A stretch of 64,000 bases of DNA, taken from assembly GCA_020848905.1 (NCBI GenBank), contig JADLHG010000026.1, positions 17,422 through 81,421 of the forward strand, given 5' to 3'. The position numbers were made by a program, and so were the translations under genes. The notes under the pieces were generated by a model. It made no database searches. It was not told where the DNA came from and saw nothing but the letters and a program-made list of their open reading frames with translations. Of the stretch, positions 1-56,156 are shown piece after piece (position 1 is the first letter of the stretch; each line of letters starts with the position of its first letter). Source of the DNA: Deltaproteobacteria bacterium. GTDB taxonomy: Bacteria; Myxococcota_A; Polyangia; GCA-2747355; JADLHG01.

Positions 1-688
1 CTTCGAGGTCGCGGCGGCCGAGGTGACCCAGGGGGAGTTCAACACGCGCCTCGGCTACCTGCCGACCGGGTTGAAGACGGGGTGCGGGACGAGCTGCGCG
101 ATCGAGCTCGTCGGGTCCCACGAGGCGATGGCGTACTGCAACGCGCTCTCCGCCAGCGCCGGCCTCGCCCGCTGCTACAGCTGCAGCGGCACACGAGGGA
201 GCACCGCCTGCACCGCCGCCCCGGGCTACGCGGGGAGCGACCTCTATCGCTGTCCGGGGTATCGCCTCCCAACGGACGCCGAGTGGGAGTACGCGGCCCG
301 CGCCGGCAGCTCGTCGGCCTTCTACAACGGCTCCATCACCAACTGCGGTCCGCGCGCCGACCCGGGCGCGGAGCTCATCGGCTGGTACGCGCGCAACTCC
401 TCCAACTCCGTGCACCCCGTGCAGCAGAAGGCCAAGAACGCGTGGGGGCTCTACGACATGTCCGGCAACCTCGCCGAGTGGGTGCAGGATCTCTACGCGG
501 CGGACCTCGGCGGGGCGGCGCGCATCGACCCCGTCAGCGCCGTGGCCGTCGGCGACCGCGTGGTGCGCGGCGGCTCCTACTTCTCTCCCGCCGAGGAACT
601 GCGCTCCGCAAGCCGCTTTCACCTGCCCGCGCAGACCACGCCCGCCTATGCCACGGTCGGCTTTCGTTGCGCGCGCACGCTTCCCTGA
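1..688 (+). CDS. Formylglycine-generating enzyme (FGE/SUMF1) family protein, C-terminal part. The 5' end is truncated by the window edge.
   Basis: Frame is open from nt 2. Motifs RLPTDAEWEYAARAG, GNLAEWV, RGGSY and GFRCAR are typical of the FGE-sulfatase domain. Confidence 0.75.
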   Translation, partial: FEVAAAEVTQGEFNTRLGYLPTGLKTGCGTSCAIELVGSHEAMAYCNALSASAGLARCYSCSGTRGSTACTAAPGYAGSDLYRCPGYRLPTDAEWEYAARAGSSSAFYNGSITNCGPRADPGAELIGWYARNSSNSVHPVQQKAKNAWGLYDMSGNLAEWVQDLYAADLGGAARIDPVSAVAVGDRVVRGGSYFSPAEELRSASRFHLPAQTTPAYATVGFRCARTLP

Positions 689-707
689 CCGACCCGAGGG
701 CCCGCCC

Positions 708-2225
708 TCAGCGCGCGGCGATGGCCTCCCCATCCACGGTCAGCCACTCCGCAGGACCGAAACGCGCCACGAGGGCAGCCGCGAGGCGATCCGTATCCCC
801 GACGACCACGATCGTGGCGTCGGCAGGCCGGAGAAGACTCGCTGCGGCCCGACGCAGTCCCCGTGCGTCCAGGCGGGCCACCTGCTCGGGAAGCCGGCCG
901 AGCGCGTCCGCGGGACGGCCGTGCGTAGCCAGCTCCACCGCGGCGTTGAGCAACCCCGCCACCGTCTCGGCGCGCGCGGGCAGCTTCTCGACGACCAGCC
1001 GACGCCCCTTCCGGAGCTCGGCGGGAGGGACGTCGGTCGACCTCAAACGCTCGAGCTCGTAGAGCAGCTGGTCGAGCGCCGCGAGCGTGTCCTTCGTCGC
1101 CACCTGCGCCTCGGCGTAGAACTGGCCCGGCCCCCGCGGCTGGTCGAAGACCGCGTGCGCCCCGTAGGTGAAGCCGTGCCGCTCGCGCAGGTTCTCGTTC
1201 AGTCGGCTCGTGAAGCAGCCGCCGAGGATCGTCCCGATCAGCCGCACCGCCGCCTCGGAGGTCGCCGCGCGGGGCGGCAGGAGGTGTCCGACGCGGATTA
1301 CCGACTGGCTGGCGCCTCGTCGGCGGACCAGCACCAGCCGCGGGGAGCGCCGCGGCCCGACGCGCGCCGCATCGAGCTCGCGGGCCTCCGGCTCGCCCGA
1401 GGCCCGCTCCTCCGGCTTCTCCTCGCTCCCCTTCCAGTCGCCGAAGCGCGCGCGCAGGTTCCGCAGCAGGCGCTCGGGGACCACGTCGCCGACGGCCACG
1501 AGGACCACGTTCTCGGGGCGCACGTGCTGCCGGTAGAAGCGGCGCACGTCCTCCACGGTCAGGCGATCCACCTCGGTCGGCGTCGGGAGGAGCGGCCTCG
1601 CGTAGGGGTGCTCGCCGTAGAGGCTGCGACGGAGCGCGAGCGCCGCGACGCGGTCGGCGCGGGTCCGGCGCTGCTCTCCCCGCGCTCGGAGCTGCGTGCC
1701 GAGGCGCACGAACTCCTCCGCCTCGAGTCGCGGACGACGCACCACGTCCGCGAGCAGCGCCAGCACCTGCTCTTCGTGGCGGCTGAGCGCCTGGATCGAC
1801 ACGAGCATCGAATCCCAGTCGGCCGAGCTGTAGATGCTCGCGCCCATCTGCTCCAGCTCCGCGGCGAAGGAGAGCGCGTCGCGCGCTCCGGCCCCGCTCT
1901 CGAGCAGCTCGGCGGTGGCGTAGGCCAGGCCCACCCGCTGCGGCGGGTCGCTCGACGCCCCGCGCAGCACGAGCGCCCCCAGGCGCAGGATCGGCAGATC
2001 CCGCTTGGGGAGCATCCACACCTGCAGCCCGTTCTCGAGCCGCGTCACCGTCGCCACGGGGAACGGAAGCGCGCGCGCGGGACCGAGCGGCGGCCGCCGC
2101 TTCATGAAGACCGGCACGGCGACCGCCCCCCCGGCGGCGCCCGAGCGCGGCGCGCCGCAGGCGCAGGTAGCGAGCTGCGCGCCGAGGAGCGCCACGAGCA
2201 CGAGGAGCCTGAGCAACGCCGTCAC
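708..2225 (-). CDS. Peptidase M16 family protein (inactive/partner subunit type) with a lipoprotein-like signal peptide
   Basis: M16 domain features (LENGLQVWMLP...). A GTG start at 2225 gives the signal VTALLRLLVLVALLGAQLATCAC. The GTG overlaps the upstream TGA (GTGA coupling). The six-frame ORF extends further upstream, but that stretch is Arg/Gly-rich junk. Confidence 0.7.
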   Translation of the reverse strand: MTALLRLLVLVALLGAQLATCACGAPRSGAAGGAVAVPVFMKRRPPLGPARALPFPVATVTRLENGLQVWMLPKRDLPILRLGALVLRGASSDPPQRVGLAYATAELLESGAGARDALSFAAELEQMGASIYSSADWDSMLVSIQALSRHEEQVLALLADVVRRPRLEAEEFVRLGTQLRARGEQRRTRADRVAALALRRSLYGEHPYARPLLPTPTEVDRLTVEDVRRFYRQHVRPENVVLVAVGDVVPERLLRNLRARFGDWKGSEEKPEERASGEPEARELDAARVGPRRSPRLVLVRRRGASQSVIRVGHLLPPRAATSEAAVRLIGTILGGCFTSRLNENLRERHGFTYGAHAVFDQPRGPGQFYAEAQVATKDTLAALDQLLYELERLRSTDVPPAELRKGRRLVVEKLPARAETVAGLLNAAVELATHGRPADALGRLPEQVARLDARGLRRAAASLLRPADATIVVVGDTDRLAAALVARFGPAEWLTVDGEAIAAR

Positions 2226-3565
2226 TCCGCGGCTCCGTGGGCCGGCACGACCCAGAGCTGCACGCGACGCCTCAGATCGATCACGCGTCGACTGGCCGCG
2301 TGCACAGCCTCGGGCGTGGCCCGGCGAAAACGCGCCAGATCGCGGCCCAGGTAATCGGGTTGCCCGGTGAGCGCAAGGTAGCGGTTCAAGAGTTCGGCCC
2401 GCCGCTGCACCCGTTGCAGCCCGGCCACGAAGGCGGTCTCCACCTGGTTCTTCACCCGCTCGAGCTCGAGCGCCGTCGGCGGAGCGGCCAGAAAGCGCGC
2501 GAGCTCGCGCTCCACGACCCGGAGGAGCCTCGTCCGCGAGACCCCGGGCCGGGCCGTGACCTCCACCACGAAGGTGGAGGCGAGCTGACCGGAGTCCTGC
2601 CGCGCCTCCACGTCCAGCGCCACCTGCCGCTCGTAGACCAGCGCCTGGTGCAACCGCGAGCGCCGGCCCTCGGCGAGGAGCATCGCCGCGAGGTCCAGCT
2701 CCGCGTCCCCCGGAGTGAGCGCCGGAGGCGAGAGCCACGCCAGGTAGAGTCGCGGCGTCTTCACCCGGTCGGCGACGGTGCGCTGCACCGGGCGCCGGAG
2801 GCTCACCGGCGCGCGGTGGGGCGCGTCCACGGGGGGCGGGGCCGGGATCCAGGCGAAGTAGCGCTCCACGAGCCTCCGGGCGTGGGCGGGCTCGAAGTCC
2901 CCCGCCACCACGAGCGAGGCGTTGCGCGGCGTATAGAAGCGCCGAAAGAGCTCCTGCACGTCGCGGAGGGTCACGGCCCGCAGATCCGACGGCGAGCCGA
3001 TCACGGGCCAGCTATAGGGGTGTCCCTTGGGGTAGAGCAGGGTCGGTAACAGGAGCTGGGCCACGCCGTAGGGGGCGTTCTCGTAGTTCTGGCGGCGTTC
3101 GTTCAGCACCACCTCGCGCTGCAGGTCCAGCTTGCGCTGCGTGAGCGCGAGCGGGAGGGTGGCCATGCGGTCGGCCTCGATCCACAGGAGCCGCTCGAGC
3201 AGCCGCGACGGTCCGACGTCGTAGTAGACCGTCATGTCCTCGCTCGTGTAGGCGTTGTTCCACCCCCCGGCACGCTCCATCAGCTGATCGATCTGCTTCT
3301 CGGGCACGTTCTGCGAGCCCGAGAACATGAGGTGCTCGAAGAGGTGGGCCGCCCCCGACCGTCCTGCGGGCTCGTTGCGCGAGCCCACGCGGTAGAGCAC
3401 GTGGACCACCACGCGAGGCAGTCGGCGGTCGGCGTGGAGGATCACATCGAGGCCGTTCTTCAGGCGGAAGCGCTCGTGGGGAATCCCGAGCGGCGACGCG
3501 GTGGCGTCTCGTCCCGCGAGGAGGAGCAGCGCCACACAGCAGGCAACCGTCCGTCGGGGCATCAC
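2222..3565 (-). CDS. Peptidase M16 (pitrilysin/inverzincin) family zinc protease, active-site type
   Basis: HLFEHLMFSGS contains the inverted zinc-binding HxxEH motif. N-terminal signal peptide MMPRRTVACCVALLLLAG. Confidence 0.8.
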   Translation of the reverse strand: MMPRRTVACCVALLLLAGRDATASPLGIPHERFRLKNGLDVILHADRRLPRVVVHVLYRVGSRNEPAGRSGAAHLFEHLMFSGSQNVPEKQIDQLMERAGGWNNAYTSEDMTVYYDVGPSRLLERLLWIEADRMATLPLALTQRKLDLQREVVLNERRQNYENAPYGVAQLLLPTLLYPKGHPYSWPVIGSPSDLRAVTLRDVQELFRRFYTPRNASLVVAGDFEPAHARRLVERYFAWIPAPPPVDAPHRAPVSLRRPVQRTVADRVKTPRLYLAWLSPPALTPGDAELDLAAMLLAEGRRSRLHQALVYERQVALDVEARQDSGQLASTFVVEVTARPGVSRTRLLRVVERELARFLAAPPTALELERVKNQVETAFVAGLQRVQRRAELLNRYLALTGQPDYLGRDLARFRRATPEAVHAASRRVIDLRRRVQLWVVPAHGAAE

Positions 3566-3660
3566 GTATAAGCGTGACCCGACGGAGGAGGCGCGGCAAG
3601 GGCGGGGGCGCCGCCGCGCGCGCGAATCGAGCGAGCCGACCGGCCCGCGGGGTCAGAGTC

Positions 3661-3868
3661 CTCAGGTGCCGCCGAACCCGATGGTCACCTTGTCGGCCTC
3701 CACGATCACCGGCACGACGCGCCGCCCCTTGCTCGCGACGAGCATCGCGTCGAGCGCGTCCGGGTCGCGGCTCACATCGTGATAGGTGACGTCCTTGCCA
3801 GCGTAGGCCTCACGGGCCTTGGTGGTGTACGGTCAACCCGGCTTGCCGTAAATGATGATCTGACTCAC
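3661..3868 (-). CDS. Glutaredoxin/NrdH-like small redox protein with an in-frame TGA at the CxxC position. Candidate selenoprotein (U-P-Y-T).
   Basis: GTG start at 3868 with AAGGAGGAG 6 nt upstream. Translation is VSQIIIYGKPG-[TGA]-PYTTKAREAYAGKDVTYHDVSRDPDALDAMLVASKGRRVVPVIVEADKVTIGFGGT, with the Grx-fold order beta-CxxC-alpha-beta-alpha-cisPro(VP)-beta-GG. The TGA is at 3833..3835. It replaces the first Cys of the Grx YGKPGCPYC-type motif. Confidence 0.55.
3805..3819 (-). promoter_or_regulatory. SECIS-like hairpin (AGGCC-CGUGA-GGCCU) 13 nt downstream of the in-frame UGA
   Basis: The mRNA-sense sequence AGGCCCGUGAGGCCU forms a 5-bp GC-rich stem with a 5-nt loop containing GU. Flanking ACCA/UGG could extend the stem. 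Confidence 0.4.
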
Positions 3869-3913
3869 GCGCTCCTCCTTGCCGCGCACCGCGGCCGATC
3901 GTCGCACTTCGTC

Positions 3914-4561
3914 CTACAACGCGCCGACGAGGGCCTCGAGCCGACGCGGCAGAGTCTCCGGTTGCCGCCAGACCAGGTGGCGCAGGGCGTCGAGGAGCTG
4001 CTCGTGGACCCCCGGCTGGCTGCACTGAGCCAGGCGCAAGCGGCGTTCGAGCTGCCCCACCCCGTCGTCGATCCAGGCGTCGATCCGCTCGCGCGGCGCA
4101 TCCAGCGCGGCGGCGACGGCATCGCGCGCCAGCCCGTGGCCGTAGCGGAGCGCGAGCGCCACGCGGAGCGGCACAGGCAGCTCCTCGATCGCGACCCGCA
4201 GGAGGTCCGGCGTGAGGCCCGGTGGATAGGTCGCCCCGCGGGGCGTGCCGACCGGCTCGTCCCCCGTCGCGGCGTAGAGGCGCGCCCGCACCTCGGGGAG
4301 CGCAAGACCGCGCGCCACCCCGAGGAGCCAGTCCCGGAGCGAGCCCTCCAGCCGGAGGTGCAGGAGCTCGGTCACCGCTTCCGTGAAGGTCCGGTACGCC
4401 AGCTCCTCCGCCGCCTCCGCGCCGTCGGTGAGGTAGCGGCACGCCGCGTACACGGCCTGGCTGTGGTTGCGGATCAGCAGACTCGCCGCCTGCCGCAGTT
4501 GCCCGCCCCGAAGGGCGCTCAGCACGGCCTGGTCGGCGGGGGAATCGAGTCGGACCTCCAT
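3914..4561 (-). CDS. RNA polymerase ECF-type sigma factor (sigma-70 family, regions 2 and 4)
   Basis: ATG at 4561 (MEVRLDSPADQAVLSALRGG...). Region 2 and 4-like motifs. C-terminal LRVALALRYGHGLARDAVAAALDAPRERIDAWIDDGVGQLERRL. Confidence 0.7.
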   Translation of the reverse strand: MEVRLDSPADQAVLSALRGGQLRQAASLLIRNHSQAVYAACRYLTDGAEAAEELAYRTFTEAVTELLHLRLEGSLRDWLLGVARGLALPEVRARLYAATGDEPVGTPRGATYPPGLTPDLLRVAIEELPVPLRVALALRYGHGLARDAVAAALDAPRERIDAWIDDGVGQLERRLRLAQCSQPGVHEQLLDALRHLVWRQPETLPRRLEALVGAL

Positions 4562-4664
4562 GGGCCTCCGAAGGCGCGGGGAATGCCCCACCCCGCTGAC
4601 TCTGCCACCGGTGGGTTCGCCGAACAAGACGCGGAGCGCGCGCACCGCATGGGCGGTCGGGGCC

Positions 4665-6653
4665 CTACTTACAGAGGTAGGTGAAGCGATCCGTGTCGGA
4701 CCGCCCGGCGTAGTAGCCCCAGTGACGCGCGAGCAGCCGGCCATCCGGCGCGCGCTCGTACGAGAGCCTCATGGCGTGCGTGGCGTCGGCGGGGGCCCCG
4801 GAGTAGTACGAGGCGAGCTCCCCGGTCGCGTCGTACGAGAACGCGTGGAGCGACCCCGGAGGATAGAGCCGGGACAGGATACGGCCCGCCGCGTCGCGCG
4901 TGCGCTCCTCGAGCAGGTTGCCGTTGCGGTAGATGGCGATGCGCCGGCCACCGGCGGAGAAGCGGCGCTCGTGCAGCACGGGGGGCGGCAGGGTCGCGGG
5001 CAGCTGGCCGAGCCCCTCGGGGATCGCCCCCACCCCGTCGGTCGGCCGCGACGCGATGGCGTGGCGCGCGATCGTGTGCCGCGAGACCTCGGCCCCCTCG
5101 TAGGCCCAGCCGTGCTGCGCCACGAGCACGCCATTCATGCGGTACGCGCGCGTCACGAGCCTCCCGTCGCGGTCGTAGACGAAGGTCAGCGCCGTGACGA
5201 GCCGCTGGCCGTCCCGGTGGAGCAGGCGCACGTCGCTGGCTACGCGCTCGCCGTCCAGCGCGCGGGTGCGTTCGTACGTCACCGAGCCGTCGCTCCCCGA
5301 CAGCCTCTCGGCGACCATGCGGCCGAGCACGTCATAGGCGAGCTCCGCCCGCAGGACGGGCGCATCCCACACCGGGTGCCAGGCCATCCCTTCCACGCGG
5401 TCGTGCCCAAACCATCTATCGATCCCCGTGTCGTAGGCCGGGCCGAACCCGTAGTCGCCATCGAGGCCCGCCGGTCGATCCCCGACGGGCCAGCCCAGGG
5501 CGTAGACGCCGTCCGCCTCCGGGTAGCCGTAGCTCATGGCGTGAGGCAGCGTGGCGCAGCCGCCCGCGGCCGGCCGCTCGGGCCGCGCGGCCGTCCATTC
5601 GCGCTGGTGGAAGGCGGCGACCAGCGGCTCGAGGTCGTCGGAGCCGCGGAGCGCCCCCCCCTCCTGGTAGAGCTTCGGCGCGAGCTCGGTACGGCTCTGC
5701 TGCAGCCGACCGTCGGCCGCGTAGACCCACTCCTGTCGCGCCCACCGGGCTCCGTCCACCGCGCGCTCCACGGCGGTCAGTCGGCCCGCCGCATCGTAGG
5801 TGAAGTCGGCGCTCCCCACGCGCCCCGAATCGCGGTGCGTCACGGTGGAGCGGACGAGGCGATCCCCCCGGTAGCTCCACCGGCGCTCCGTGACGCCGGT
5901 CCGGTTGATACCATCCACGAAGCGCGAGGCCACGAGGCGCGCTCCGTCCCAGGTGTTGGTCCACGTGAACCACAGGGCGCCGCCGAAGTGGTAGCGGTCC
6001 TCGAGCAGGTGCCCGGCCCGGTCGAAGCGCCGTTCCAGGCGTCGCGCGGCGGTCGAGCCGTACTCCATCGCGAGCACCGTCACGTGGAGCTCGCCGGTGG
6101 TCGCGTGGCGCTTCGCGCGGATCGTGCCAGCCCAGCGTTCGCCTTCGAGGTCACCCGGTCTCGAGAAGGCCATCGGCGGTGGACGGTGGGTCCAGGCGCG
6201 GGCCACCGCGGGCAGCTCGACGAAGCAATCCCCGCCATCGCACGAGGTGCTCCCCGGCGCGGCGAAGAGCTCCAGCGGGGTCGGGAAGCCGTCCGTCACC
6301 CCGCCGCTCGTACGGCGCTCGAGGCGGCAGGAGCTCCCCTCGGCGGCACGCACCCAGGCGAGCAGCTCGGGGGCCAGCTCGGACCCCGGGTGCGCCGGTT
6401 GCGGAGCGCAGTAGCCGGTCGCCGCAGAGGGGGTGCCCGGCGGCGCCACTCCGGGAGGCGTCGGGCCCACCCCGGGTGTGGGAGCCGGGGGAAGGTGTTG
6501 CTCAGGGACCTCTGCCCGCGGGTCGCCCGTCTCAGGCAACCCGGGGCGCGAGCACCCCGCACACCAGAGCGACACCCCGAGCAGGGCGGCGCCGACCCCC
6601 GTGCTCCGCCCCACCGACCTACCGCTGTTTCGCGCTTCGCGTGTGTTCGTCAT
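4665..6653 (-). CDS. YD-repeat (RHS-family) lipoprotein
   Basis: Multiple YD repeats (YDAAGRLTAVER, YAADGRLQQSRTE, FVYDRDGRLVTRAYRMNG, SYDATGELASYY). N-terminal lipoprotein signal MTNTREARNSGRSVGRSTGVGAALLGVSLWCAGCS. AT-rich patch upstream. Confidence 0.7.
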   Translation of the reverse strand: MTNTREARNSGRSVGRSTGVGAALLGVSLWCAGCSRPGLPETGDPRAEVPEQHLPPAPTPGVGPTPPGVAPPGTPSAATGYCAPQPAHPGSELAPELLAWVRAAEGSSCRLERRTSGGVTDGFPTPLELFAAPGSTSCDGGDCFVELPAVARAWTHRPPPMAFSRPGDLEGERWAGTIRAKRHATTGELHVTVLAMEYGSTAARRLERRFDRAGHLLEDRYHFGGALWFTWTNTWDGARLVASRFVDGINRTGVTERRWSYRGDRLVRSTVTHRDSGRVGSADFTYDAAGRLTAVERAVDGARWARQEWVYAADGRLQQSRTELAPKLYQEGGALRGSDDLEPLVAAFHQREWTAARPERPAAGGCATLPHAMSYGYPEADGVYALGWPVGDRPAGLDGDYGFGPAYDTGIDRWFGHDRVEGMAWHPVWDAPVLRAELAYDVLGRMVAERLSGSDGSVTYERTRALDGERVASDVRLLHRDGQRLVTALTFVYDRDGRLVTRAYRMNGVLVAQHGWAYEGAEVSRHTIARHAIASRPTDGVGAIPEGLGQLPATLPPPVLHERRFSAGGRRIAIYRNGNLLEERTRDAAGRILSRLYPPGSLHAFSYDATGELASYYSGAPADATHAMRLSYERAPDGRLLARHWGYYAGRSDTDRFTYLCK

Positions 6654-6754
6654 GCACTCGAGGATGACCTCGGTGCATAACATTGGGAAACGCTCTTTTC
6701 GCTACTCAATAATATTGCACGGCCGAACAATGCCGCGGCGGGCGCTACGGCGGA

Positions 6755-7246
6755 CTACTTCAGGCTGTACGGACCGATCGGCATCTTGCTCGAATCGGTG
6801 ACCTTGACCTTCACGTCGAGGAGGTTGCCCAGCATCCAGAGCACCGGGGACGGCATCCAGGTCGCCGCCTTGGCCAGGGTGTTCACCCCGCGGCCGGTCA
6901 CTTCGACGCCGAAGCCGATGGTCCCCGGGAGCCGCACGTACATGGCGCGCCCCTTCCCCTGCTCGGGCTTCGACTCGAGGCCGTAGACGCCTCCGGTGAT
7001 CAGCTTGCCGTTCAAGTGATCCGACTGAAACGCGGCCACCTCCACGCGATAGGCGCGGTAGCCGGCGTGCTCGGCCGCGGCGTTGGCCCGGACGGCCGCC
7101 TTCATCCGCGGCATGAGCGCCTTGGACAGCACCGTGGCCTGGCGCGGGTTCAGGGTCAGAAACAGCCCCCCCTTTGCCTGCGCCGCTCCTGCGAACAGCA
7201 TCGCCGCCGCGATCACTCCGAGTCCGATTCGGCTCGAGGTTTTCAT
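6755..7246 (-). CDS. Hypothetical secreted protein
   Basis: ATG at 7246 gives signal peptide MKTSSRIGLGVIAAAMLFAGAAQA. Protein-like composition. No recognised domain. Confidence 0.5.
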   Translation of the reverse strand: MKTSSRIGLGVIAAAMLFAGAAQAKGGLFLTLNPRQATVLSKALMPRMKAAVRANAAAEHAGYRAYRVEVAAFQSDHLNGKLITGGVYGLESKPEQGKGRAMYVRLPGTIGFGVEVTGRGVNTLAKAATWMPSPVLWMLGNLLDVKVKVTDSSKMPIGPYSLK

Positions 7247-7490
7247 CACACGCCTCCTGACTCCCCGCCTGGCGCGCGTGGCGCCGCGGGCTCGTGGTGG
7301 TGATCCGCTCGCCTGCCGCCAGACCTTGGGCGGCATGCGAGCAGAAGACCCGTCGCTGGTTGATGTCGGAGCCTTGAGCAAGCGGCGTGCCGGCTGCCTT
7401 CGTCGGCGAAGCGCTGGAGATCGTTGCAGGCCGTCGGTAGGGGGGCGGAGAGGAGGCTCTCCGACTTTGGGTGGGTGGCTAGCGCGCGCT

Positions 7491-7525
7491 GGCTAGCAGG
7501 CGATCCCGGCTAGTAGGCGATCCCG
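7491..7525. repeat. Imperfect 17-bp tandem duplication (CTAGCAGGCGATCCCGGC / TAGTAGGCGATCCCGGC) spanning the vWA gene stop codon
   Basis: Direct repeat read in the sequence. The second copy encodes the C-terminal AGIAY-stop. The first copy lies just downstream and would encode AGIAC-stop. Confidence 0.6.
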
Positions 7526-8760
7526 GCCTTCGGGCCTTGCGCCTTCAGCGCCTCGCCCACCTTGTCGTCAAAGGCGTCGCTGCGGACGCTCTTCCGCCGG
7601 GTCTTCAGGTATCCGTCGCGGGCCTTGGCCAGCTTCGCGATCTCCTCCTGGACCTCCTTCCGCTCGCGCGCCACGCGGTCCACGTAGGCCTGCCGCGCCG
7701 GCGCGGGCAGCGCGGCCACCTGCGGCGGGAGCTCTCGCGCCGCCATCCCCCCGAGGGCACGGCCACGCCCGAGCTTGCTCAAGAGGTCGGCGCCGTCGAT
7801 CGCCCCGCGGCGGGCGCGATAGGTCGCGCTCTCGGCCTGCGCCACCTCGTCCATCGACAGATTCGACCGGGCCCGCTCGCGGGCCGCGTCCTTCTCCGCC
7901 CCGCTCCCCGACGGAAGGAGCGTGGCCGAGAGCTTGCGGTTCAGCTCCGCCAGCCGTCGGTCGTGCGGCGTGGCCATCGCCACCATGCCGCCGTCCTGCT
8001 GGATGCTCGCGTACATGCCGCCCGCCACCCGGGCGATACCGCGCCACGCGGTGGCCGTCTCTTCCATCTCGCCACACCGCACGGCGTTGATCACGATCCC
8101 CTTCTGGCTCGCCTCGCGCGCCAGCTCCTTCGAGTAGAGGCCTCCGCGCCCCTCGTGCGGCGGCGCGTCCCCGACGAGGAAGATGAGCCGCAGGACGTCC
8201 TTGCCGTCGCGCCACTGCATGTTGCGGATCGCCTCGGCCAGCGCGCGGTTCACGTGCTCGGGGGTGTCCCCGCCCCCGGCAGCCTCGAAGCCCTGGAGGT
8301 TCTTGTACACGTCGTCCACCTCCTCCGAGAGCGCGTAGCGGCGCGTCACGTACGCGTCCCCCACGTCCCGATAGCCGATGAGGCCGATGCGCACGTGCGG
8401 CTTCGGCTGCCCCGAGAGCACCTGATTGGCGATGGACCAGATCTTCCGCTTCGCCCCGGCGAGGAGCCCCGACATGCTGCCCGTCGTGTCCACCGCGAAG
8501 ACCAGGTCGACCTGCGGGGACTTCTCCTCGGCCACGGGCCTCGGCGGCTCGGGCGCCACCGTCGGGCGCGTGGGCACCACCGGCGGCTTCACCGTGGCCA
8601 CGCGCGGCGGATGCACGGGGTGAGGGTCGACAAGACGCGGGTCCAGCCGGGCCACGAGGGCGCGGTCGCTCCGGCCGGCCAGCGCCAGAGCCACGACGGC
8701 GATGACCCCCGCGAGCGCCATCAACCCGACCGTCACGTTACGTCTACGCTGGGTGGACAT
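7510..8760 (-). CDS. von Willebrand factor type A (vWA) domain protein, membrane-anchored
   Basis: N-terminal TM helix (VGLMALAGVIAVVALALAG). MIDAS motif DLVFAVDTTGSMSG. Typical vWA spacing of downstream T and D residues. Confidence 0.8.
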   Translation of the reverse strand: MSTQRRRNVTVGLMALAGVIAVVALALAGRSDRALVARLDPRLVDPHPVHPPRVATVKPPVVPTRPTVAPEPPRPVAEEKSPQVDLVFAVDTTGSMSGLLAGAKRKIWSIANQVLSGQPKPHVRIGLIGYRDVGDAYVTRRYALSEEVDDVYKNLQGFEAAGGGDTPEHVNRALAEAIRNMQWRDGKDVLRLIFLVGDAPPHEGRGGLYSKELAREASQKGIVINAVRCGEMEETATAWRGIARVAGGMYASIQQDGGMVAMATPHDRRLAELNRKLSATLLPSGSGAEKDAARERARSNLSMDEVAQAESATYRARRGAIDGADLLSKLGRGRALGGMAARELPPQVAALPAPARQAYVDRVARERKEVQEEIAKLAKARDGYLKTRRKSVRSDAFDDKVGEALKAQGPKAGIAY

Positions 8761-8885
8761 GGGACTCTCCTTCGGTTCGTACGAGCGGATGTCCCTAGAA
8801 ACGCGGCTCCCGTCCGATCGATCTACGGCACGTGCACGGGGCCCGCGAGCCCGGCCTTCGGCCTATTAAGCCCTCAGGTTCACGC

Positions 8886-8891
8886 TATAAT
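8886..8891 (+). promoter_or_regulatory. TATAAT -10-like hexamer 8 nt upstream of the kinase ATG. Candidate leaderless promoter.
   Basis: cacgcTATAATcgccggccATG. Only a weak -35 (TTAAGC with a 14-nt spacer). No SD sequence is possible in the 8-nt gap. Confidence 0.3.
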
Positions 8892-8899
8892 CGCCGGCC

Positions 8900-10948
8900 A
8901 TGTCCCGGCGGTGCCTCACCCTCTCGCTCCTCGGCCTCCTTTCGGCCAGCGCCGCCACGGCCCTGCTCTTCACCCTCTGCCTGCCGCTCCTGGTCTCGCT
9001 CCCCGCGGCGAGCTGGACCGGCGTCCCCCTCTGGGGCGTCCTCTCCCCCATGGCCGCCGGACTGGCCGGCGCCGCGGTGCTCCTCGCCGGCCACCGGGGC
9101 CTCCGCCGCGGCGTGCGCGCCGAGCACCTCGGGAACCTGCCGGGCCAGGTCGTGCTCGCTTTCGGAGTCGCCGCCACCACGACCCTCTTCCTCGGCGCGC
9201 TCATCGAGCGCGATGCGCTCCTCCGACACCGCCCGCTCGGGATCTTCCTCTCCGGACCCGCGCTCGTGCTGAGCGTGACCACCCTGCTGCGCCCGATCCT
9301 CCGCGTGCCGCTCGTGGCGGAGATGAACCGCCTGCTGGCGACGAGCCGCCGACCGCGGCGAGCCGAGGCCGACGGCAGCCCGTCCAGCGCCGCACCGGAG
9401 CCCGCCCCGTCCACCTCGCGCGGGCTCTTCCGCAGGTCGAGCCTCGCCGTGCTGGCCATCACGCCGGCCCTCACCGTCTCGGCGCTCGCCCTGGCCGGCG
9501 TCTCGTGGACCTTGATCGGAGTCCACAGCTACTACCACGTGCTCTCGAACGAGGAGCAGATGGCGCGCGGGCACCTCTCCACCCTGCTGCACACGGTGCA
9601 GGTCCAGCTCCAGCGGCTCCCGCACGCCAAGCATCGCGGCTTCGTCGAGACGCTCCCCGCCGCGCGCCAGGGGCAGGTGGTCCTGCTCGACGAGGACGGC
9701 CGCGTGCTGTCGCGCCGTTCGGGCCTCGACCCGCGGATCCCCCTCGAGCAGCGCGGCGAGCGCTGCCGCCAGGCCGAGCAGCAGTGGCGGTGCGCCGTCG
9801 AACCAGCCCCGGGCAATCGCCGGATCGCCGCCCTGCAGGCCCCGTCGCTTCCCGACGCCGAGGTCGCCGCCACCGACATCGGTCCGGCGCTCGTCCTCCT
9901 CGCGCTCGGATTCCTCCTCTTCGCCGGGATGCTCGGCCGCGCCGTCGGACAGGACGCCTCGCGCGACTTCCGCACCGTCACGCAGCAGCTCTACGCCATG
10001 GCCCGCGAGGACCAGCCCGACCTGGGACGCCCGCTCGCGGTGACCTCGCTGGACGAGGTCGGCGAGCTCGTGGCCGCCGTCGGCAAGCTGCGGACCCGCC
10101 TCGGCGCGGAGCTCGAGGCCTACCGCGACTCGGTCCGCAAGACGGCCGAGGCCGAGCGCATGAAGAACCAGTTCCTTTCCGACGTGAGCCACGAGCTCCG
10201 CACCCCGCTCAACTCGCTCTGCGGTCACGCGCAGCTTCTTCTCGAGGGGATCGAAGGTCCTCTGTCGACCGCCCAGCGTGAGGACATCCGCTCGATCTCG
10301 AAGGGGGGACAGCAGCTCCTCGCGCTGATGACCGACGTCCTGGACCTGTCGGTGATCGAGTCCGGAAAGCTCACCCTCAAGACCGAGAAGGTGGACCTGG
10401 CCCGCCTCTGCCGCGACATCGCGGAGGGCCAGCGATCGGTGCTGCGCGCCGCCGCGAAGGAGGGCCCCCCGAAGGTGCAGCTCGAGCTCGACCTCGCCGA
10501 GGAGCTGCCCGAGGTGGTGGCCGATCCGCGCCGCATCCAGCAGGTCCTGCTCAATCTGGTGAGCAACGCCATCAAGTTCACCACCGAGGGGTCGGTCACA
10601 CTGCGCGCCCGGCGCGAGGGCCCGGACCTCGTGCGCCTCGAGGTGGAAGACACGGGCACGGGGATCGGAGCCACCGACCTGCCGCGCGTCTTCGAGGAGT
10701 ACCGTCAGGCGGGCACGCTGCGGTCGAAGCGCAAGGGGACCGGCCTCGGGCTCGCGATCTGCCGCCGCCTCGTGGAGCTCCATGGTGGGCAGATTTCCGC
10801 CGAGAGCGAGATAGACCGGGGCTCGCGCTTCACGGTGCTCCTGCGCGTCGCCGGCCCCCCGCTGGCGGCGTCGTCCCGACCAGGCGGCGGAAGCGACCCG
10901 CGAGGGAGCCGCCCCGAAGGGAGCACCCCGGGAGGCAGCGCGCCGTGA
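8900..10948 (+). CDS. Sensor histidine kinase (multi-TM sensor region, HisKA + HATPase_c)
   Basis: H-box [17 protein letters not shown]1 and G2 boxes ([37 protein letters not shown]). Several N-terminal TM helices. Confidence 0.85.
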
Positions 10949-12858
10949 CCCGCGTCTACTTCGCGATGGGGTCGCTCCGCCTGCGGCTCATCCTGGGCGT
11001 GACCATCGGGACCGCCGTGCTCGGCGTCACCGAACTCGCGGGGGGCCAGCGCCTGCTCGGCCTCTCCCCGCTGCAGCTCCAGCAGCAGACGCTCACCTGG
11101 GGGGTCTACGCCACCTTCTTCGTGCTGGTCCTGTCGGCCTACGTCATGACCTACCTAAGGGGTGTCGCGCGCTTTCTCTCCCGCGTGCGCGACGAGGAAG
11201 GGCTCGAGATCCCCGCCGCAGAGAGCGCCGCGGTCCGCCGCACGGTGCTGCGCTTCCCCGTGGACTTCGTCCTCGTCGGCATGGGGCTCGCCACCTTCCT
11301 CACGGCGAGCAAGATCCCCCTCGACGTGCTGGTCTTCGACCTTCCGGCCGGAGCCGCAGTGGGGCTCGCCACCGGCACCGCCACGCTGACCCTCGCGGCG
11401 GGAGTGCTCTTCTACCTCGTGACGCGCGGCTGGATGCGCCCGCTGCTGGCCCACTTCCGGCACGAGGAGGTCCCCGAGGCCTCGCGCATCCCCGTGACCG
11501 GCAAGGTGGCCTTCGCGCTCGTGACCCTCGGCCTGGCCTCGACGGTCCCGACGGCGGTGATCGGGGCCGGCCGGATCCTGAGCCTCGAGCAGCAGAGCGC
11601 CGAGCGCTACGGGCAGCACCTGGCCGACACGCTGGCCCACGGCTCCTCCTGGCTCGCCGAGGACTCCTGGAAGGAAGCCCTGGCGGCCGCGCGACTCCCG
11701 GGCCGTCAGGTGCGTCTCGGGGACCGCCCCACCGCCGCGAGCGCCCCGCTCGTCCCCGGCCACGGGGCCTCCTTTCTGCAGCTCACGACGCTCGAGCCCT
11801 CCCATGCGCCCGCCGGCGAGCTTTCGGTGCTCGTGGTGCTGGCCACGCTGCTCCTCGGCGTGGCGGTCTTCGTCGGACGCAACCTCGGGCTAAGCCTGAG
11901 TCAGGACATCCGGTCGGTGACCCAGCGCATCTCGCTCCTGGCGCAGGGACCGCAGGCCGACGCCGAGCCGACGCCGAAGGGGCTCTCGCCGCTCGTCGCC
12001 GGGGCGCCGCAGTTCAGCGACCTGCGCGAGCTGACCAGCGCGGTGAACGCCCTCCTCTCGCGCATCACCTCGATCCACGTGGCGCACTTCGTCGCGGTGG
12101 AGCGCACACTCGAGGCGGACCAGCTTCGCACGCAGTTTCTCGCCAACATGAGTCACGATCTGCGCAGTCCCCTGAACTCGATCCTCGGCTTCGCGGAGCT
12201 CCTGCTGCAGGGGATGGAGGGGGAGCTCCCCCCCGCGCAGCACCAGGCGATCGAGACCATCCACCGCAACGGCACCGAGCTACTGCACCTGGTGAACGAG
12301 GTGCTGGAGTCGGCGAAGCTCGAGGCGGGGCGGCTGGCGCTGCACCGCGAGGACATGCCGCCGGCGGAGCTCCTCTCGGCCGCGCTCAAGGAGGCGCATT
12401 CCCGCGGCGTGCCCGCCGGAGTCGAGCTCTCCTCGGAGCTCCAGGCCGGGCTGCCGGTGCTCTTCGTCGACGGCCCGCGCCTGGCCGAGGCGCTGGCCTA
12501 CCTCGTGACCTACGCCGCCCAGGCGCTGCAAAACGGACGGATCCAGGTGCGCGTGCGCGCCACACCGCCGGCGGGCGAGACGCGCATCACCGAACAGCGC
12601 CTCACGCTCCAGCTCGTCGTGGCCGACGACGGGCCGGGCCTCTCCGAGGAGGAGAAGGAGCACCTCTTCTCGGGCTTCCGCCGCCGCCCCGGGCAGCGCG
12701 GCCTGAACCTCGGGCTCCCGCTCGCGCGCGCGCTCATCGAGCTCCACGGCGGAACGCTCGCCGTCTACAGCGCCGCGGGGCAAGGGACCACCTTCATGGC
12801 CAGCGTACCGGTTCAGGCCCGCCGCATGTCGGGCCGCTTTCGGCCCGTAAGGGTCTGA
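10945..12858 (+). CDS. Sensor histidine kinase (membrane, HisKA + HATPase_c)
   Basis: H-box [18 protein letters not shown]-binding motifs ([28 protein letters not shown]). The GTG start overlaps the upstream TGA (GTGA). Confidence 0.85.
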
Positions 12859-12869
12859 GCGCGGGCCGC

Positions 12870-13868
12870 GTGGTATACTGCCCCGACGAGACGCCATCCG
12901 TGATTCCCCAGGCGAAGCAGAGCGCGGCGGTCTCTCCCGCCGTGGTGCAGCGGATCGAGCAGGCGGTGGAGCGCGCGGTGCGCGGCAAGCGCGAGGTGGT
13001 GCGCCTGCTCCTCGCCGCGCTCTTCGCCCGCGGCCACGTGCTCATCGAGGACGTCCCCGGGGTGGGCAAGACCACGCTGGCGCGGGCGCTGGCCGCCTGC
13101 CTCGGCGGGACCTTCCGACGCATCCAGTTCACCTCGGACCTCCTCCCGTCGGACATCCTCGGGGTGAACGTCTATCGCGCCGAATCGGGGGCGTTCGAGT
13201 TCAAGCCGGGGCCGATCTTCGCCCACGTCGTGCTGGCCGACGAGATCAACCGCACCACGCCGCGCACGCAGAGCTCGTTGATGGAGGCCCTGAACGAGGG
13301 GCAGGTCACAGTGGATAATCACACCTACCCGCTCGAGTCGCCGTTCCTCGTCATCGCCACGCAGAACCCGGTCGAGCACTTCGGCACCTATCCGCTCCCC
13401 GAGTCGCAGATGGATCGGTTCCTCCTGCGCGTCACCATGGGCTACCCGGCCCACGACGACGAGCGGCGGCTGATCGCGGAGGGGGGTGGCCTCGACGCGG
13501 TGGCGAGCCTCGAGCCGGTGGTCACGCTCGACCAGGTGCGCGCCATGCAGGAGGTCGTGGATCAGGTGCGCGTGGATCCGGCGCTCCTCGACTACGTGAT
13601 GACGGTGGTGGCGGAGACGCGGCGCTCTCCGCACCTGGCGCTGGGGGTGAGCACCCGCGGGGCCATCGCCTGGTATCGCGCGGCGCAGGCCTTCGCGCTC
13701 GTGCAGGGACGCGACTACTGCGTCCCCGACGACGTGAAGCAGCTCGCGCCGAGCGTCCTCGCGCACCGGGTGATCCTCTCCGGGCAGCAGGAGGCGCTGG
13801 CGCAAGGGCGCGACGAGGCCGAGCAGGTGATCGCCGAGCTCCTGGCTCGCCTCCCCGTCCCTCTGTGA
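12870..13868 (+). CDS. MoxR-family AAA+ ATPase
   Basis: Walker [13 protein letters not shown]. Walker [25 protein letters not shown]. Typical MoxR length. An alternative GTG start is at 12900. Confidence 0.85.
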
Positions 13869-13899
13869 TCGCCCCGCCCACCGAGCCCACGGAAAGGCC

Positions 13900-14958
13900 G
13901 TGAAGCCCCGCTACCGCGCCCCCCGGCTGCGCTTCACCCGCGAGGGGAAGTACTTCGTCCTGCTGACCCTCGGCATCGGCTTCGCAGCGATCAACACCGG
14001 CAACAACCTCCTCTACCTCGTCCTCGGCATGCTGCTCTCGCTGATCGTGGGGAGCGGCGTCCTCTCCGAGCTCGGCCTCCTCGGGCTCTCCGCCCGGCGC
14101 AGGTTCCCGAGGCGCGTCTACGCGGGACGGCCGGTCCTCGCCACGGTGACGCTCGAGAACACGAAGCGTCGCCTCCCCTCCTTCTCCGTCGAGGTCCAGG
14201 ACCTGCTCGAGGGCCGGCCCCTCGACAAGAAGTGCTACTTCCTCAAGGTCCCGGCCCGCCGTTCGCAGGAGACCTCGTACCGCCACACCTTCCCGCGTCG
14301 AGGGGCCTACACGCTCACCGAGCTCGTACTCGGCACGCGCTTCCCCTTCGCGCTCTTCTTCAAGAGCTATAGGCACCACGCGCCGCTCGAGCTGGTCGTC
14401 TACCCCGCCGTGGAGCCGCTCTCGCCCGAGGAGCGCGGCGCCCGCGAGGGAGACGACAGGCTCGGCGTGCGGCTGGCCCGCCGGGGCGAGTTCCACGCCC
14501 TGCGCGAGTACCGCACCGGCGACGACCCGCGAGAGATTCACTGGCGCAAGAGCGCCCGCCTCGGTCGCCCCTTCGTGCGCCAGCACGAGGAACCGACCGG
14601 ACAGCGGCTGATGATCCTGCTCGACAACGGCGTCGATCGAGCTGCGCTCGGCGCCGAGGAGCTCGAGGCGCAAGAGCGCGCCGTGGTGCGCGCCGCCTCG
14701 CTCGCCACGCACTACCTCGAGCGAGGCTACGCCGTGGGGCTCGCCACCCGCACGGGGAGCGTGCCCCTCGGCTCCGGGCCTGGGCAGCTCGACCACCTCC
14801 TGCGCGCGCTCGCGCTCCTCGCCTTCGTCCCGGCCGAGGCCCCCCTCACGCCTCCGTCGCGCTTCTCCGGCGAGACGATCCTCGTGCGCCCCGGCCCCCC
14901 CTCGACCGCGCGCCCCTCTGCCGCGCCCCCCTCCGCGGCGGCCGGAGGGTCCCGCTGA
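13900..14958 (+). CDS. DUF58-family protein (MoxR partner, vWA-like)
   Basis: N-terminal TM pair. Signature [19 protein letters not shown] typical of DUF58. Lies immediately downstream of MoxR. Confidence 0.75.
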
Positions 14959-17180
14959 TGCGCTTCTCCTCGCTCCACAAGCTCTGCGCCTACCTCACGG
15001 TCGGCAGCGCCCTGGCGGCGGTGCTCCTCAGCCCGGAGCTCTCCCCCGCCGCGCGCCTCCTCCCCCCGCTCGCCCTCCTCCTGAGCTGGTTCGCCGAGCC
15101 CCCGCGCTGGCCCACGGCACGCCTCGCCGCGGCCTGGAACGTGGCCACGCTCGTCTTTCTGCTCGTGCAAGGGGCGCAGGTCCTCTCGGGCGCTCCGCTG
15201 ATCGAGGCCGGGGTGCACTTTCTGCTCGCAGTGCTGGTGAACAAGCTCTTCAACCGACGCACGAGCAAGGACTACCAGCAGCTCTACGTGGTGAGCCTCC
15301 TGCTCCTCGTGGCAGGCACGGTGCTCAACACGAGCCTCTCGTACGCCGTCTGCTTCGTGCTCTACGTCGTCTTCGCCACCTGGGCGCTGATCCTCTTCCA
15401 CCTGCGGCGCGAGATGGAGGAGAACTACCTCCTCAAGCACGGCGAGGACGAACGCAGCGAGCGCGTGGACGTGGAGCGCATCTTCGCCTCGCGACGAATC
15501 GTCGGCCCGGGGTTTCTCGCCGGCACCTCCCTCATCTCGCTCGTGATCCTCCTCGGCTCGGTGCTCCTCTTCACCTTCTTCCCGCGCGTGGGCTTCGGCC
15601 TCTTCTTCGGCCAGAAGCGCGGCGGCGTGATGATGGCCGGCTTTCGCGAGCAGGTGGCCCTCGGGCAGCACGGCACGGTGCGCGACAACCCGAAGGTCGT
15701 CATGCGGATCGTCTTCCCGGAGGGGAAGCGGCCGCCGCTCCTCTATTTCCGCGGGTCGGTCTACGACGCCTACCGCGACGGGACCTGGAGCCACGGCGCG
15801 GGGCTCGCCGGCACGACCGTGCCGATCGCGCCGACGGAAGGGCTCTACCTCGTGAACCCGGCTCCAGGCCTCCCCGCCGAGCCGCCCCCGCGCCTGGTTC
15901 GCGAGCGGCTCCTCCGGCAGGAGGTGTACCTCGAGCCGCTCGACTCGACGGTGCTCTTCGGCGCCGACCGCCCCGTGGCGGTCGAGGTGCCGCGTCCCCC
16001 CGGCGGGCTGCGTCCCCCTTTCCTGCCGCGCCGCGGCCCGCATGGCGAGCTCCGCGCCGACCGCGTGCGCACCGCCGGCGTGCACTACGTCGTCTTCTCG
16101 CAGCCGAAGCGCCCCGCGGCGCCGCTCCTCCGCTCGGCAGAAGCGCTCGAGGGCCCCCGCCTCGCGCGGTTTCTGCGCCTGCCCCCGGAGCTTCCCGAGC
16201 GGGTTCGCGCCCTCGGTCGCCGCCTCGTGGCAAGCGATCGCACGGTCTACGACAAGGTGCTCGCCGTCCAGCGCTACCTGACGACGAACTACCGCTACAC
16301 CCTGGCGCTCCAGCACCAGCCCGGACGCGAGCCGGTGGACGAGTTTCTCTTCGAGACCCGCCAGGGACACTGCGAGTACTTCGCCTCGGCCTTTGCCGTG
16401 CTCCTGCGTGCGGGCGGGGTCCACGCGCGCAACGTGAACGGCTTCGCCGGCGGGGAGTGGAACGGCTACGGCAAGTACCTCGCCGTGCGCGAGGGGGACG
16501 CGCACGCCTGGACCGAGGTGCTCTTTCCGAACGTGGGGTGGGTGGCCTTCGACGCCACGCCGACGGGGGCCGTGGCGCGCCCCGCCCCAGCCGGCTTCCT
16601 GAACAGCGTGACCCAGCTCCTCGATACGCTGCGCCTGCGCTGGTTCCGTTACGTGGTCGAGTACGACCTCGGCAAGCAGGTGGCCCTCTTCCGCCGCGCC
16701 GAGCGCCTCGTCAGCGGCCGCGGAGCGAAGCGCGAGGGGAGCTCGTGGTTTGCGCGCCACCGCAGGCTCCTCCTTGGTGCCGGAGGCGCGGCACTGGCCT
16801 GCCTCCTTGTCGTCGTGGCGTGGCGGCGGCGCAGGCGGCGCGGCTCCGACCCCGTGCGCGGCGAGGCCCGCGGCAGACCCCACCCCGCGGCGCAGCTCTA
16901 TCGCCGGGCCACGGCGCTCCTCACGCGGGCGGGCCGCACGCGCCCGGAGAGCGTCACCCCGCGAGAGTTCGCACGCGCGCTCGCCGAACAGCGCTTCCCG
17001 GCGGCGCCGCTGGTGGGGGACGTGACGGACTGCTACTATCGGGCCCGCTTCTCGCCGGTGCAGGGTGCGCGCGCCGAGCTCGAGACGCTGAGCCGGCTCG
17101 TCGGACAGCTCGAGCTCGCCCTGCGCGAGGCTGCGAGCGCCCCCGCGGCGGGTCCACGGAGCGCAAGGAGGGATCGATGA
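14958..17180 (+). CDS. Transglutaminase-like domain membrane protein (DUF3488-TGase-DUF4129 type)
   Basis: TGase core GHCEYFASAFAVLLRAGGVHARNVNGF...HAWTEVLFPNVGWVAFDATP (Cys-His-Asp). Multiple N-terminal TM helices. The ATG overlaps the upstream stop (TGATG). Confidence 0.8.
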   Translation: MRFSSLHKLCAYLTVGSALAAVLLSPELSPAARLLPPLALLLSWFAEPPRWPTARLAAAWNVATLVFLLVQGAQVLSGAPLIEAGVHFLLAVLVNKLFNRRTSKDYQQLYVVSLLLLVAGTVLNTSLSYAVCFVLYVVFATWALILFHLRREMEENYLLKHGEDERSERVDVERIFASRRIVGPGFLAGTSLISLVILLGSVLLFTFFPRVGFGLFFGQKRGGVMMAGFREQVALGQHGTVRDNPKVVMRIVFPEGKRPPLLYFRGSVYDAYRDGTWSHGAGLAGTTVPIAPTEGLYLVNPAPGLPAEPPPRLVRERLLRQEVYLEPLDSTVLFGADRPVAVEVPRPPGGLRPPFLPRRGPHGELRADRVRTAGVHYVVFSQPKRPAAPLLRSAEALEGPRLARFLRLPPELPERVRALGRRLVASDRTVYDKVLAVQRYLTTNYRYTLALQHQPGREPVDEFLFETRQGHCEYFASAFAVLLRAGGVHARNVNGFAGGEWNGYGKYLAVREGDAHAWTEVLFPNVGWVAFDATPTGAVARPAPAGFLNSVTQLLDTLRLRWFRYVVEYDLGKQVALFRRAERLVSGRGAKREGSSWFARHRRLLLGAGGAALACLLVVVAWRRRRRRGSDPVRGEARGRPHPAAQLYRRATALLTRAGRTRPESVTPREFARALAEQRFPAAPLVGDVTDCYYRARFSPVQGARAELETLSRLVGQLELALREAASAPAAGPRSARRDR

Positions 17181-55726: not shown

Positions 55727-55733
55727 GCGGCCC

Positions 55734-56156
55734 ATGGACCATCAGCGCGCAAACGAGCTGTTCAGCGAGTACCTCGAGGGAGAGCTCCCGCCCGAGGAGA
55801 AGCAGGCGGTCGAGGAGCACCTCGCCGGCTGCGACACCTGTCGCGCGGAGCTCGAGGCCTTCCGCACGACGCTGCGAGGCCTGTCGGGGCTGCACACCCT
55901 GCCGCCGCCGACGGACTTCGCCCATCAGGTGGAGCAGCGCATCCACCGCCGCTCGCGCGGGCGCTTCTTCGGCGACGACCGCACGCTCAGCCGCATCCCC
56001 TTCGAGTGGCTCTCCTTCGCGCTCATCGTCTTCGTGCTCGCCATGTACGTTCTGCTGATGCTCGATTCGAAAAAGGTGGCTACCCCGCCGAAGGGGGGCA
56101 GCGGGCCCGCCGCGCGGTCCGGTGACGGCGGGAAGGCGACTCCGCCCGCCCCGTGA
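55734..56156 (+). CDS. Zinc-finger (ZAS-type) anti-sigma factor, membrane-anchored
   Basis: HLAGCDTC matches H-x3-C-x2-C. A TM helix LSFALIVFVLAMYVLLML follows. Lies 8 nt downstream of the ECF sigma. Confidence 0.7.
   Translation: MDHQRANELFSEYLEGELPPEEKQAVEEHLAGCDTCRAELEAFRTTLRGLSGLHTLPPPTDFAHQVEQRIHRRSRGRFFGDDRTLSRIPFEWLSFALIVFVLAMYVLLMLDSKKVATPPKGGSGPAARSGDGGKATPPAP

Follow-up and report, generated by a model that had tools for sequence, protein, structure and literature searches.

A sigma factor-like gene and an M16B-type peptidase gene pair linked in uncultured Myxococcota, with a selenoprotein gene lying between them in one genome

Organisation of the locus

The locus described here lies in a 64,000-nucleotide (nt) stretch of DNA from a Deltaproteobacteria bacterium of the Myxococcota (assembly GCA_020848905.1, contig JADLHG010000026.1, positions 17,422 to 81,421), which as a whole is termed the window and has a G+C content of ~73%. 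The list of open reading frames (ORFs) and the sequence reveal four co-directional minus-strand genes which encode, in order, a protein resembling extracytoplasmic function (ECF) sigma factors (hereafter the sigma-like protein), a small glutaredoxin (Grx)-like protein and two subunits of an M16 peptidase, M16A and M16B (as distinct from the enzyme class, which is termed M16B-type). The sigma-like gene (3914..4561) encodes 215 residues with an ECF-type sigma-2 domain, a sigma-4-like region and a conserved C-terminal tail; its ATG start at 4561 is confirmed by alignment, since the N terminus lines up with those of its homologues. It is separated by 45 nt from the Grx-like gene (3653..3868), which has a GTG start at 3868 and is preceded by a Shine-Dalgarno sequence, AAGGAGGA, read directly at 3873..3880. 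A further gap of 87 nt leads to M16A (2222..3565, 447 residues), the stop of which overlaps the start of M16B (708..2225, 505 residues) by the 4 nt GTGA at 2225..2222, so that the latter is probably translationally coupled. A preliminary description of this DNA, made from the ORF list and the letters, had the gene order, strand, overlap and most coordinates right.

A scan of positions 400-7600 found no intrinsic terminator inside the four-gene block and no sigma-70-type promoter between the four genes or in the 103-nt spacer 5' of the sigma-like gene (4562..4664, minus strand), in which a promoter is presumed to lie, although none was recognised. Separate promoters or terminators between the genes, which the preliminary description had named as evidence that would speak against a single unit, were thus not found. 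The missing terminators, together with the short gaps and the 4-nt overlap, suggest that the four genes are co-transcribed.

A conserved sigma-like/M16A/M16B unit

Flanking genes were examined around eight distinct members of the sigma-like family. In seven of them (loci L165, from a Myxococcales metagenome-assembled genome (MAG), L166, L167, L168/L169, L171, L172/L173 and the P0179 contig) an M16A orthologue is located 7-66 nt 3' of the sigma-like gene, and M16B comes next wherever the contig reaches that far; the eighth, that of the P0182 contig, is followed after 58 nt by a co-directional gene to which no identity could be assigned. The M16A proteins of these modules share 59-72% identity with that of the window, and identity among the sigma-like proteins has fallen to 28-45%; among 145 other metagenomic M16A homologues, even the best are no more than 50% identical. 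Neither a sigma-like nor a Grx gene was ever seen upstream of M16A homologues at ≤50% identity in 80 loci, where the pairing of M16A with M16B is kept, the partner gene following in nearly all of the loci that reach far enough downstream.

As judged from this comparison of gene orders, the conserved unit is the sigma-like gene with M16A and M16B. The proposal that all four genes form one minus-strand unit therefore stands for these three, which occur together in each of the seven relatives that have an identifiable downstream gene, but not for the Grx-like gene. The simplest history would be that of an ancestral sigma-like/M16A/M16B operon, into the first spacer of which a selenoprotein gene was acquired in the present lineage. 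A link of ECF or other sigma factors to M16 peptidases (insulinases) was mentioned neither in the ECF classification nor in the M16 review or the other literature searched.

It may be argued that the sigma-like gene and the peptidase pair are neighbours by shared ancestry in one narrow lineage, with no functional meaning, as the close family is small, with 19 cluster representatives reaching E≤1e-10 in a search of 1.84 billion proteins, and all its members derive from uncultured Myxococcota-type MAGs or metagenomes. Such an accident of descent is improbable, given that the trio has remained contiguous, with gaps of 7-66 nt, despite divergence to 28-45% identity in the sigma-like protein and 59-66% in M16A, and despite surroundings that all differ (genes for a peptidase S74 and FadL in L165, a VWA protein in L166, a YD-repeat protein in the window, and others again in the P0179 contig). 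The gaps of 7-25 nt in several loci, moreover, indicate operon coupling.

A separate observation on the related loci is that an ORF upstream of the sigma-like gene, which has no Pfam match, is 86-91% identical among the short-form loci L169 (3-371), L172 (2-568) and L173 (2-313); it might be a further component of the module in that sub-lineage. In L166 the spacer preceding the sigma-like gene (7756-7860) contains a series of short CTTCACTCC-like repeats in tandem.

The small selenoprotein gene

The preliminary description ended the Grx-like gene at 3661, taking as its stop a TGA (3662..3664) that is instead the second of two selenocysteine (Sec) codons. This TGA precedes GGA CTC TGA, and the sequence ACC TGA GGA CTC TGA at 3667..3653 constitutes the ending, T-U-G-L-stop, of the UXX-star selenoproteins, such that the gene runs from 3868 to 3653 and encodes 71 residues; as a result, the gap to M16A is 87 nt, and not 95 nt as had been given, whereas the gap of 45 nt to the sigma-like gene had been correctly stated. 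The first in-frame TGA (3833..3835) encodes Sec12 in G-U-P-Y-T, i.e. at the active site position of a CPYT motif, and the second encodes Sec69.

With Cys in place of Sec, the translation reaches 99.9 bits with the profile NF041114 ('UXX-star selenoprotein family 1'; cut-off 72), a match spanning profile positions 1-67 of 70 without the U-G-L tail being added; the PF00462 match has an E-value of 2.3e-8. Its closest relative, that of locus L001, is 85% identical and has both TGA codons. All 83 of the UXX-star family 1 loci surveyed share the TGA-X-X-stop ending. The first site is more variable, being TGA in 33 and TGC or TGT in 36 of 69 distinct family loci, numbers which have to be read in the light of a locus scan by trimmed alignment that favours Cys-type genes; tblastn alignments break at an in-frame TGA, with the result that the nearest two-Sec relatives are under-represented. 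The family is listed as a two-Sec 'UxxT' selenoprotein in a 2026 review (PMC13188914). By every sequence feature considered, the small gene is a real, intact and already catalogued UXX-star family 1 selenoprotein gene.

Both TGA codons are followed by a hairpin resembling a selenocysteine insertion sequence (SECIS). The first, AGGCC-CGUGA-GGCCU (3805..3819), shows a compensatory change of G-C to A-U in L001. The second, GCGGGCC-GGUC-GGCUCGC (3631..3648), lies in the 3' untranslated region, that is, within the spacer before M16A; the same GGUC-loop hairpin is found in L001, and comparable hairpins stand 12-15 nt after the TGA throughout the family. A motif CCCG[U/G]GAGG, located 12-36 nt downstream of the first ([C/U]PYT) site, is present in 28 of the 33 Sec-type (TGA) loci, as compared with one of the 36 Cys-type loci (Fisher p=7e-13), and is a candidate for the in-frame SECIS core of the U-type genes of the family. 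An Rfam scan of window positions 1-9000 at E≤1 matched no family, the folding energies of the whole hairpins were no different from those of shuffled sequences, and Sec-type and Cys-type genes could not be told apart by their folding energy downstream of the first UGA.

Relationship of the selenoprotein to the module

The Grx-like gene occupies the slot, 45 nt past the sigma-like stop, in which an ECF operon usually has its anti-sigma factor, and the preliminary description put forward the hypothesis that its product is a stand-in, i.e. a thiol/selenol switch acting on the sigma factor, or a maturation factor for the peptidase pair, in a four-gene redox module. The strong Shine-Dalgarno sequence and the lack of a terminator on either side of the gene are in keeping with this proposal. 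Redox-sensing anti-sigma factors of the zinc-binding (ZAS) type exist, and they provide a precedent.

The distribution of the gene, however, argues against its being part of such a module. The Grx gene is missing from, and from the vicinity of, the sigma-like/M16 modules of all eight relatives of the sigma-like protein, the spacers of which, at only 7-66 nt, leave no space for it. In the opposite direction, none of ~83 loci of the selenoprotein family has an adjoining sigma or M16 gene. A tblastn search of 80 UXX-star genome loci with 10-kb flanks, using the sigma-like and M16 proteins of the window, gave no sigma-like match, and M16 matches in four loci only, each ~8 kb from the selenoprotein gene; a hidden Markov model (HMM) of the sigma-like family yielded two weak generic ECF matches and nothing else in the UXX-star flanks. 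A Pfam scan of 144 flanking ORFs found LolA-like, ThyX, thioesterase and MFS proteins, with neither sigma factors nor M16 peptidases among the 25 most frequent families listed. The gene of L001 is located between PilZ and histidine kinase genes, and that of another close relative adjoins a Ser/Thr kinase gene.

The properties of the protein itself point the same way. Pfam and NCBIfam profile searches found no anti-sigma or zf-HC2 domain in it, and its ORF translation lacks a signal peptide, whereas both peptidases are predicted to be exported. The gene next to the sigma-like gene thus encodes a glutaredoxin-fold selenoprotein in the window, and M16A in the relatives, rather than a co-encoded anti-sigma factor. 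The same genome does have the normal arrangement: at 55133-56156 (plus strand) a canonical ECF sigma gene (PF04542, 71 bits; PF08281, 58.5 bits) is followed after 7 nt by that of a zf-HC2 anti-sigma factor (47 bits).

The search for conservation of the sigma/Grx/M16/M16 order, which the preliminary description had put forward as a check, thus found the Grx placement in this genome only. A role for the selenoprotein as anti-sigma substitute, or in a redox-linked module, is accordingly highly improbable, and its gene appears, on the gene orders compared, to hold an incidental position in the spacer between the sigma-like gene and M16A.

Identity and predicted fold of the sigma-like protein

The sigma-like protein is annotated by NCBI as a hypothetical protein and misses every curated cut-off (PF04542, 19.8 bits versus 24; PF08281, 17.6 versus 25.7; TIGR02937, 39.2 versus 42.9). 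A word-indexed protein search with it returned only the protein itself; an exhaustive HMMER search returned 1,455 weak relatives, which are typical ECF sigma factors, and with them the small close family. The sigma-2 domain by which membership of the ECF (group 4) branch of the sigma-70 family is judged is recognisable. The identification as a sigma factor rests on the fold and on the 1,455 weak homologues, and the label 'ECF sigma' of the preliminary description is over-confident in view of the scores.

The AlphaFold2 model has a mean pLDDT (predicted local distance difference test) of 86 and a predicted template modelling score (pTM) of 0.83. It superposes on CnrH/CnrY (over 140 residues), SigG1 (141 residues), RpoE/NepR (128 residues) and also on anti-sigma-bound SigW; the predicted structure thus adopts the compact shape of ECF sigma factors in complex with their anti-sigma factors. 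The region below the PF08281 cut-off is modelled with a sigma-4-like fold, matching 2h27 over 58-68 residues at 2.6-3.1 Å. The C-terminal extension (residues ~185-215, encoded at 3917..4009) forms two helices, 185-194 and 203-214, predicted with a pLDDT of ~97.

In family alignments the sigma-2 region is conserved and the C-terminal tail strongly so, with a variable part between them. Region 2.2 contacts RNA polymerase (RNAP) in ECF sigma factors, and its motif, AEDLTQExF (AE[DE]L..x.F), is well conserved across the family. The tail motif, W-R-x-x-E-x-L-x-R-R-L-E-x-L-x-x-A-L, is family-wide (consensus WRxSESLqRRLExLasAL), with L204, R206, R207, L208, L211 and L215 being invariant in 20 members, including forms without sigma-4; the tail is modelled at a pLDDT of 93-97 in long and short forms alike. 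In the model of a short form (pTM 0.76; TM-score of 0.80 to sigma-E region 2) the sigma-2 domain is accompanied by a confidently placed tail helix.

The peptidase pair

M16A matches Peptidase_M16 (3.1e-18) and M16_C (1.6e-29), has the zinc-binding motif HLFEH at residues 74-78 and, downstream, REVVLNE at 150-156, which includes the Glu ligand; among solved structures it is closest to 4nnz and 3amj_C ('zinc peptidase active subunit'). M16B matches M16_C (2.4e-29) and M16 (4.2e-11), the HxxEH motif is not present, and the solved structures nearest to it are 3gwb and 3amj_B ('zinc peptidase inactive subunit'). Export signals are predicted for both, a signal peptide of the Sec secretion type for M16A and a lipobox, LATC, indicative of a lipoprotein, for M16B. 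By motif content and structural relatives, the window pair is predicted to be a heterodimeric metallopeptidase of the M16B type, with M16A as its active alpha and M16B as its inactive beta subunit.

The predicted location of the peptidases differs among orthologous modules. Clear signal peptides or lipoboxes are found on the peptidases of the window, L165, L168/169, L172 and L173. No signal peptide can be fitted into the M16A reading frame of L166, L167 or L171, and M16B of L167 has no lipobox (the regions without export signals being L166 8553-8850, L167 411-800 and 1601-2100, and L171 1901-2341).

A role of the pair as leader peptidase of a ribosomally synthesised and post-translationally modified peptide system, acting on the sigma-like tail, was considered and rejected, since the tail shows high conservation and not variability, and the window peptidases are exported.

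Discussion

The available evidence is best accommodated by a conserved three-gene module into which a selenoprotein gene has been inserted, the module comprising a self-regulated ECF-type regulator co-transcribed with an exported M16B-type heterodimer; we assign this reading a probability of roughly 0.6. As to the mechanism, we infer that the four genes would be transcribed together from upstream of the sigma-like gene and that a separate anti-sigma factor would not be needed, because the C-terminal helices may fold back between sigma-2 and sigma-4 and so hold the protein in a compact, inactive shape. Some signal would then release the sigma-like protein, which might drive its own operon, including the peptidase pair, while the selenoprotein would be an independent small redox protein that merely shares the transcript. 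Autoinhibition by the C-terminal helices would be consistent with the compact model and with the published ECF groups that have short extensions and no anti-sigma factor. ECF groups with short C-terminal extensions usually have no other discernible regulation (PMC7826278).

Several observations weigh against this proposal. All sequence scores of the sigma-like protein lie under the curated thresholds, and the recognition helix of the sigma-4-like region in the window protein is acidic (RERIDAWIDDG), not basic. About half of the clusters and most metagenome members have only ~131 residues and lack sigma-4 wholly; since most members are without this domain, a classical sigma role cannot explain the family-wide link to M16. 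A recognisable ECF-type autoregulated promoter was found neither in the window scan nor in the relatives' upstream regions, where no ECF-type promoter is common to the sigma-like genes and only TTGACA-like boxes occur, in three relatives. With regard to the selenoprotein, the 64-kb window contains no tRNA, hence no tRNA-Sec, and no sel families are among the 25 most frequent of the 41 Pfam families matched by 34 large window ORFs; the capacity of this organism to decode selenocysteine is therefore deduced from the selenoprotein gene itself.

Some of these points lend weight to a different possibility, that the sigma-like protein is a pseudo-sigma factor tied to the M16 pair rather than an initiation factor, acting as a PhyR-style decoy or partner, or with its Arg-rich tail helix serving as a putative recognition or cleavage element for the M16B-type enzyme. 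The conserved core of the family is, indeed, sigma-2 plus tail alone, the long forms have a degenerate sigma-4 recognition helix, and two members match PhyR_sigma2. Enzymes of the mitochondrial processing peptidase (MPP) type within M16B recognise basic targeting peptides with a tendency towards amphiphilic helices (PMC12731061, a review), and an M16 peptidase has been reported to control a transcription regulator in Bacteroides (PMC13081976). In L166, L167 and L171, moreover, where M16A has no room for a signal peptide (nor M16B of L167 a lipobox), peptidase and sigma-like protein could share a compartment. By contrast, in the window, L165, L168/169, L172 and L173 the peptidases have export signals and the sigma-like protein has none, which would separate them topologically, and the region 2.2 that contacts RNAP in ECF sigma factors is well conserved. 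This alternative is unlikely overall, but it is kept as a substantial one because the short forms cannot act as sigma factors and the sigma-4 helix of the window protein is acidic.

A broader conjecture, which we consider doubtful, is that proteins consisting of sigma-2 and a conserved C-terminal helix form an undescribed class of sigma-derived regulators coupled mechanistically to an MPP-like M16B-type pair. The Arg-rich amphipathic tail might, for example, be bound or clipped by the peptidase as a switch, or the short forms might be RNAP-binding decoys or one half of a split sigma factor, the long form of the window then being ancestral.

In terms of known systems, the self-regulated ECF-type reading places the sigma-like protein with those ECF sigma factors that have short extensions and no anti-sigma factor (ECF238/CorE-SigZ and ECF29; in longer form the ECF41/56 type, SigJ and SigG1), with which it shares a core of sigma-2 and sigma-4-like regions, an extra C-terminal segment and the lack of a nearby anti-sigma gene; the extent of its superposition on SigG1, which is self-inhibited, adds to the likeness. 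Unlike in those groups, the tail of the window family is not Cys-rich, not of the RCE/D type and not SnoaL-like, the window protein scores under the Pfam/TIGR cut-offs used for ECF collection, and most members lack sigma-4. The short forms, being sigma-2 without sigma-4, recall the split sigma factor SigO-RsoA of Bacillus subtilis and the sigma-like domain of PhyR; however, no gene for a lone sigma-4 partner was observed next to the short forms, the receiver domain of PhyR is missing from the sigma-like family, and the window protein, unlike split or partial sigma factors, retains a sigma-4-like fold. Overall, the sigma-like/M16B module may be regarded as a variant within the class of ECF sigma factors with regulatory extensions, in which the sigma-4-less majority is unusual.

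The peptidase pair resembles Sph2681/Sph2682 of Sphingomonas (PDB 3amj) and TTHA1264/1265 of Thermus thermophilus, in which the genes of an active HxxEH subunit and of an inactive partner likewise adjoin each other; heterodimeric M16B-type structures, 3amj and similar, are among the best matches of both window subunits in solved structures. By comparison with these pairs, the window pair falls in a distinct clade (59-66% identity within, ≤50% to others), always with a sigma-like gene ahead, and the signal peptide and lipoprotein signal are features of the window pair. The selenoprotein has the [C/U]PYT site, the Sec three residues from the C terminus and the hairpins after both TGA codons of UXX-star family 1 (NF041114; 'distant Grx-like protein 1'), from which it shows no structural difference; what is unusual is only its placement after a sigma-like gene and ahead of an M16 pair, which is not conserved.

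The replacement of an anti-sigma factor by a redox or selenium switch would, if true, have been a new regulatory principle; since the selenoprotein belongs to a known family and is in an incidental position, the locus does not provide one. What remains is an ECF-derived family outside the curated sigma models, with its own conserved C-terminal helix, often without sigma-4 and linked to one clade of M16B-type peptidases. The module is thus a concrete case for considering what controls those ECF-type proteins that have no anti-sigma factor, and also what bacterial M16B-type heterodimers, the natural substrates of which are mostly unknown, do.

Neighbouring genes

Between the sigma-like gene and a VWA gene (8760..7510) the minus strand of the window carries a YD/RHS-repeat ORF (672 residues, 6683..4665) and a 208-residue ORF without a family match (7381..6755). 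The VWA gene is shared with L166, where the orthologue (64% identical) immediately precedes the sigma-like gene and the two ORFs are missing; they therefore look like a lineage-specific insertion (window 4665-7381 versus L166 6520-8000). PADLOC matched none of the sigma-like, M16A, M16B and YD-repeat proteins or the 208-residue ORF to a defence system.

On the other side of the block, an FGE-sulfatase (SUMF1-like) ORF (23-688, plus strand) runs towards M16B, the two stop codons being only 19 nt apart; a fragment of an FGE-sulfatase gene is also present at the edge of L166. Elsewhere the window contains a pair of PmbA/TldD metallopeptidase ORFs. Beside the divergent VWA gene, positions 8900-17180 (plus strand) encode two histidine kinases, a MoxR-type AAA ATPase, a DUF58 protein and a TgpA/transglutaminase-like protein, i.e. 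a typical MoxR-VWA neighbourhood.

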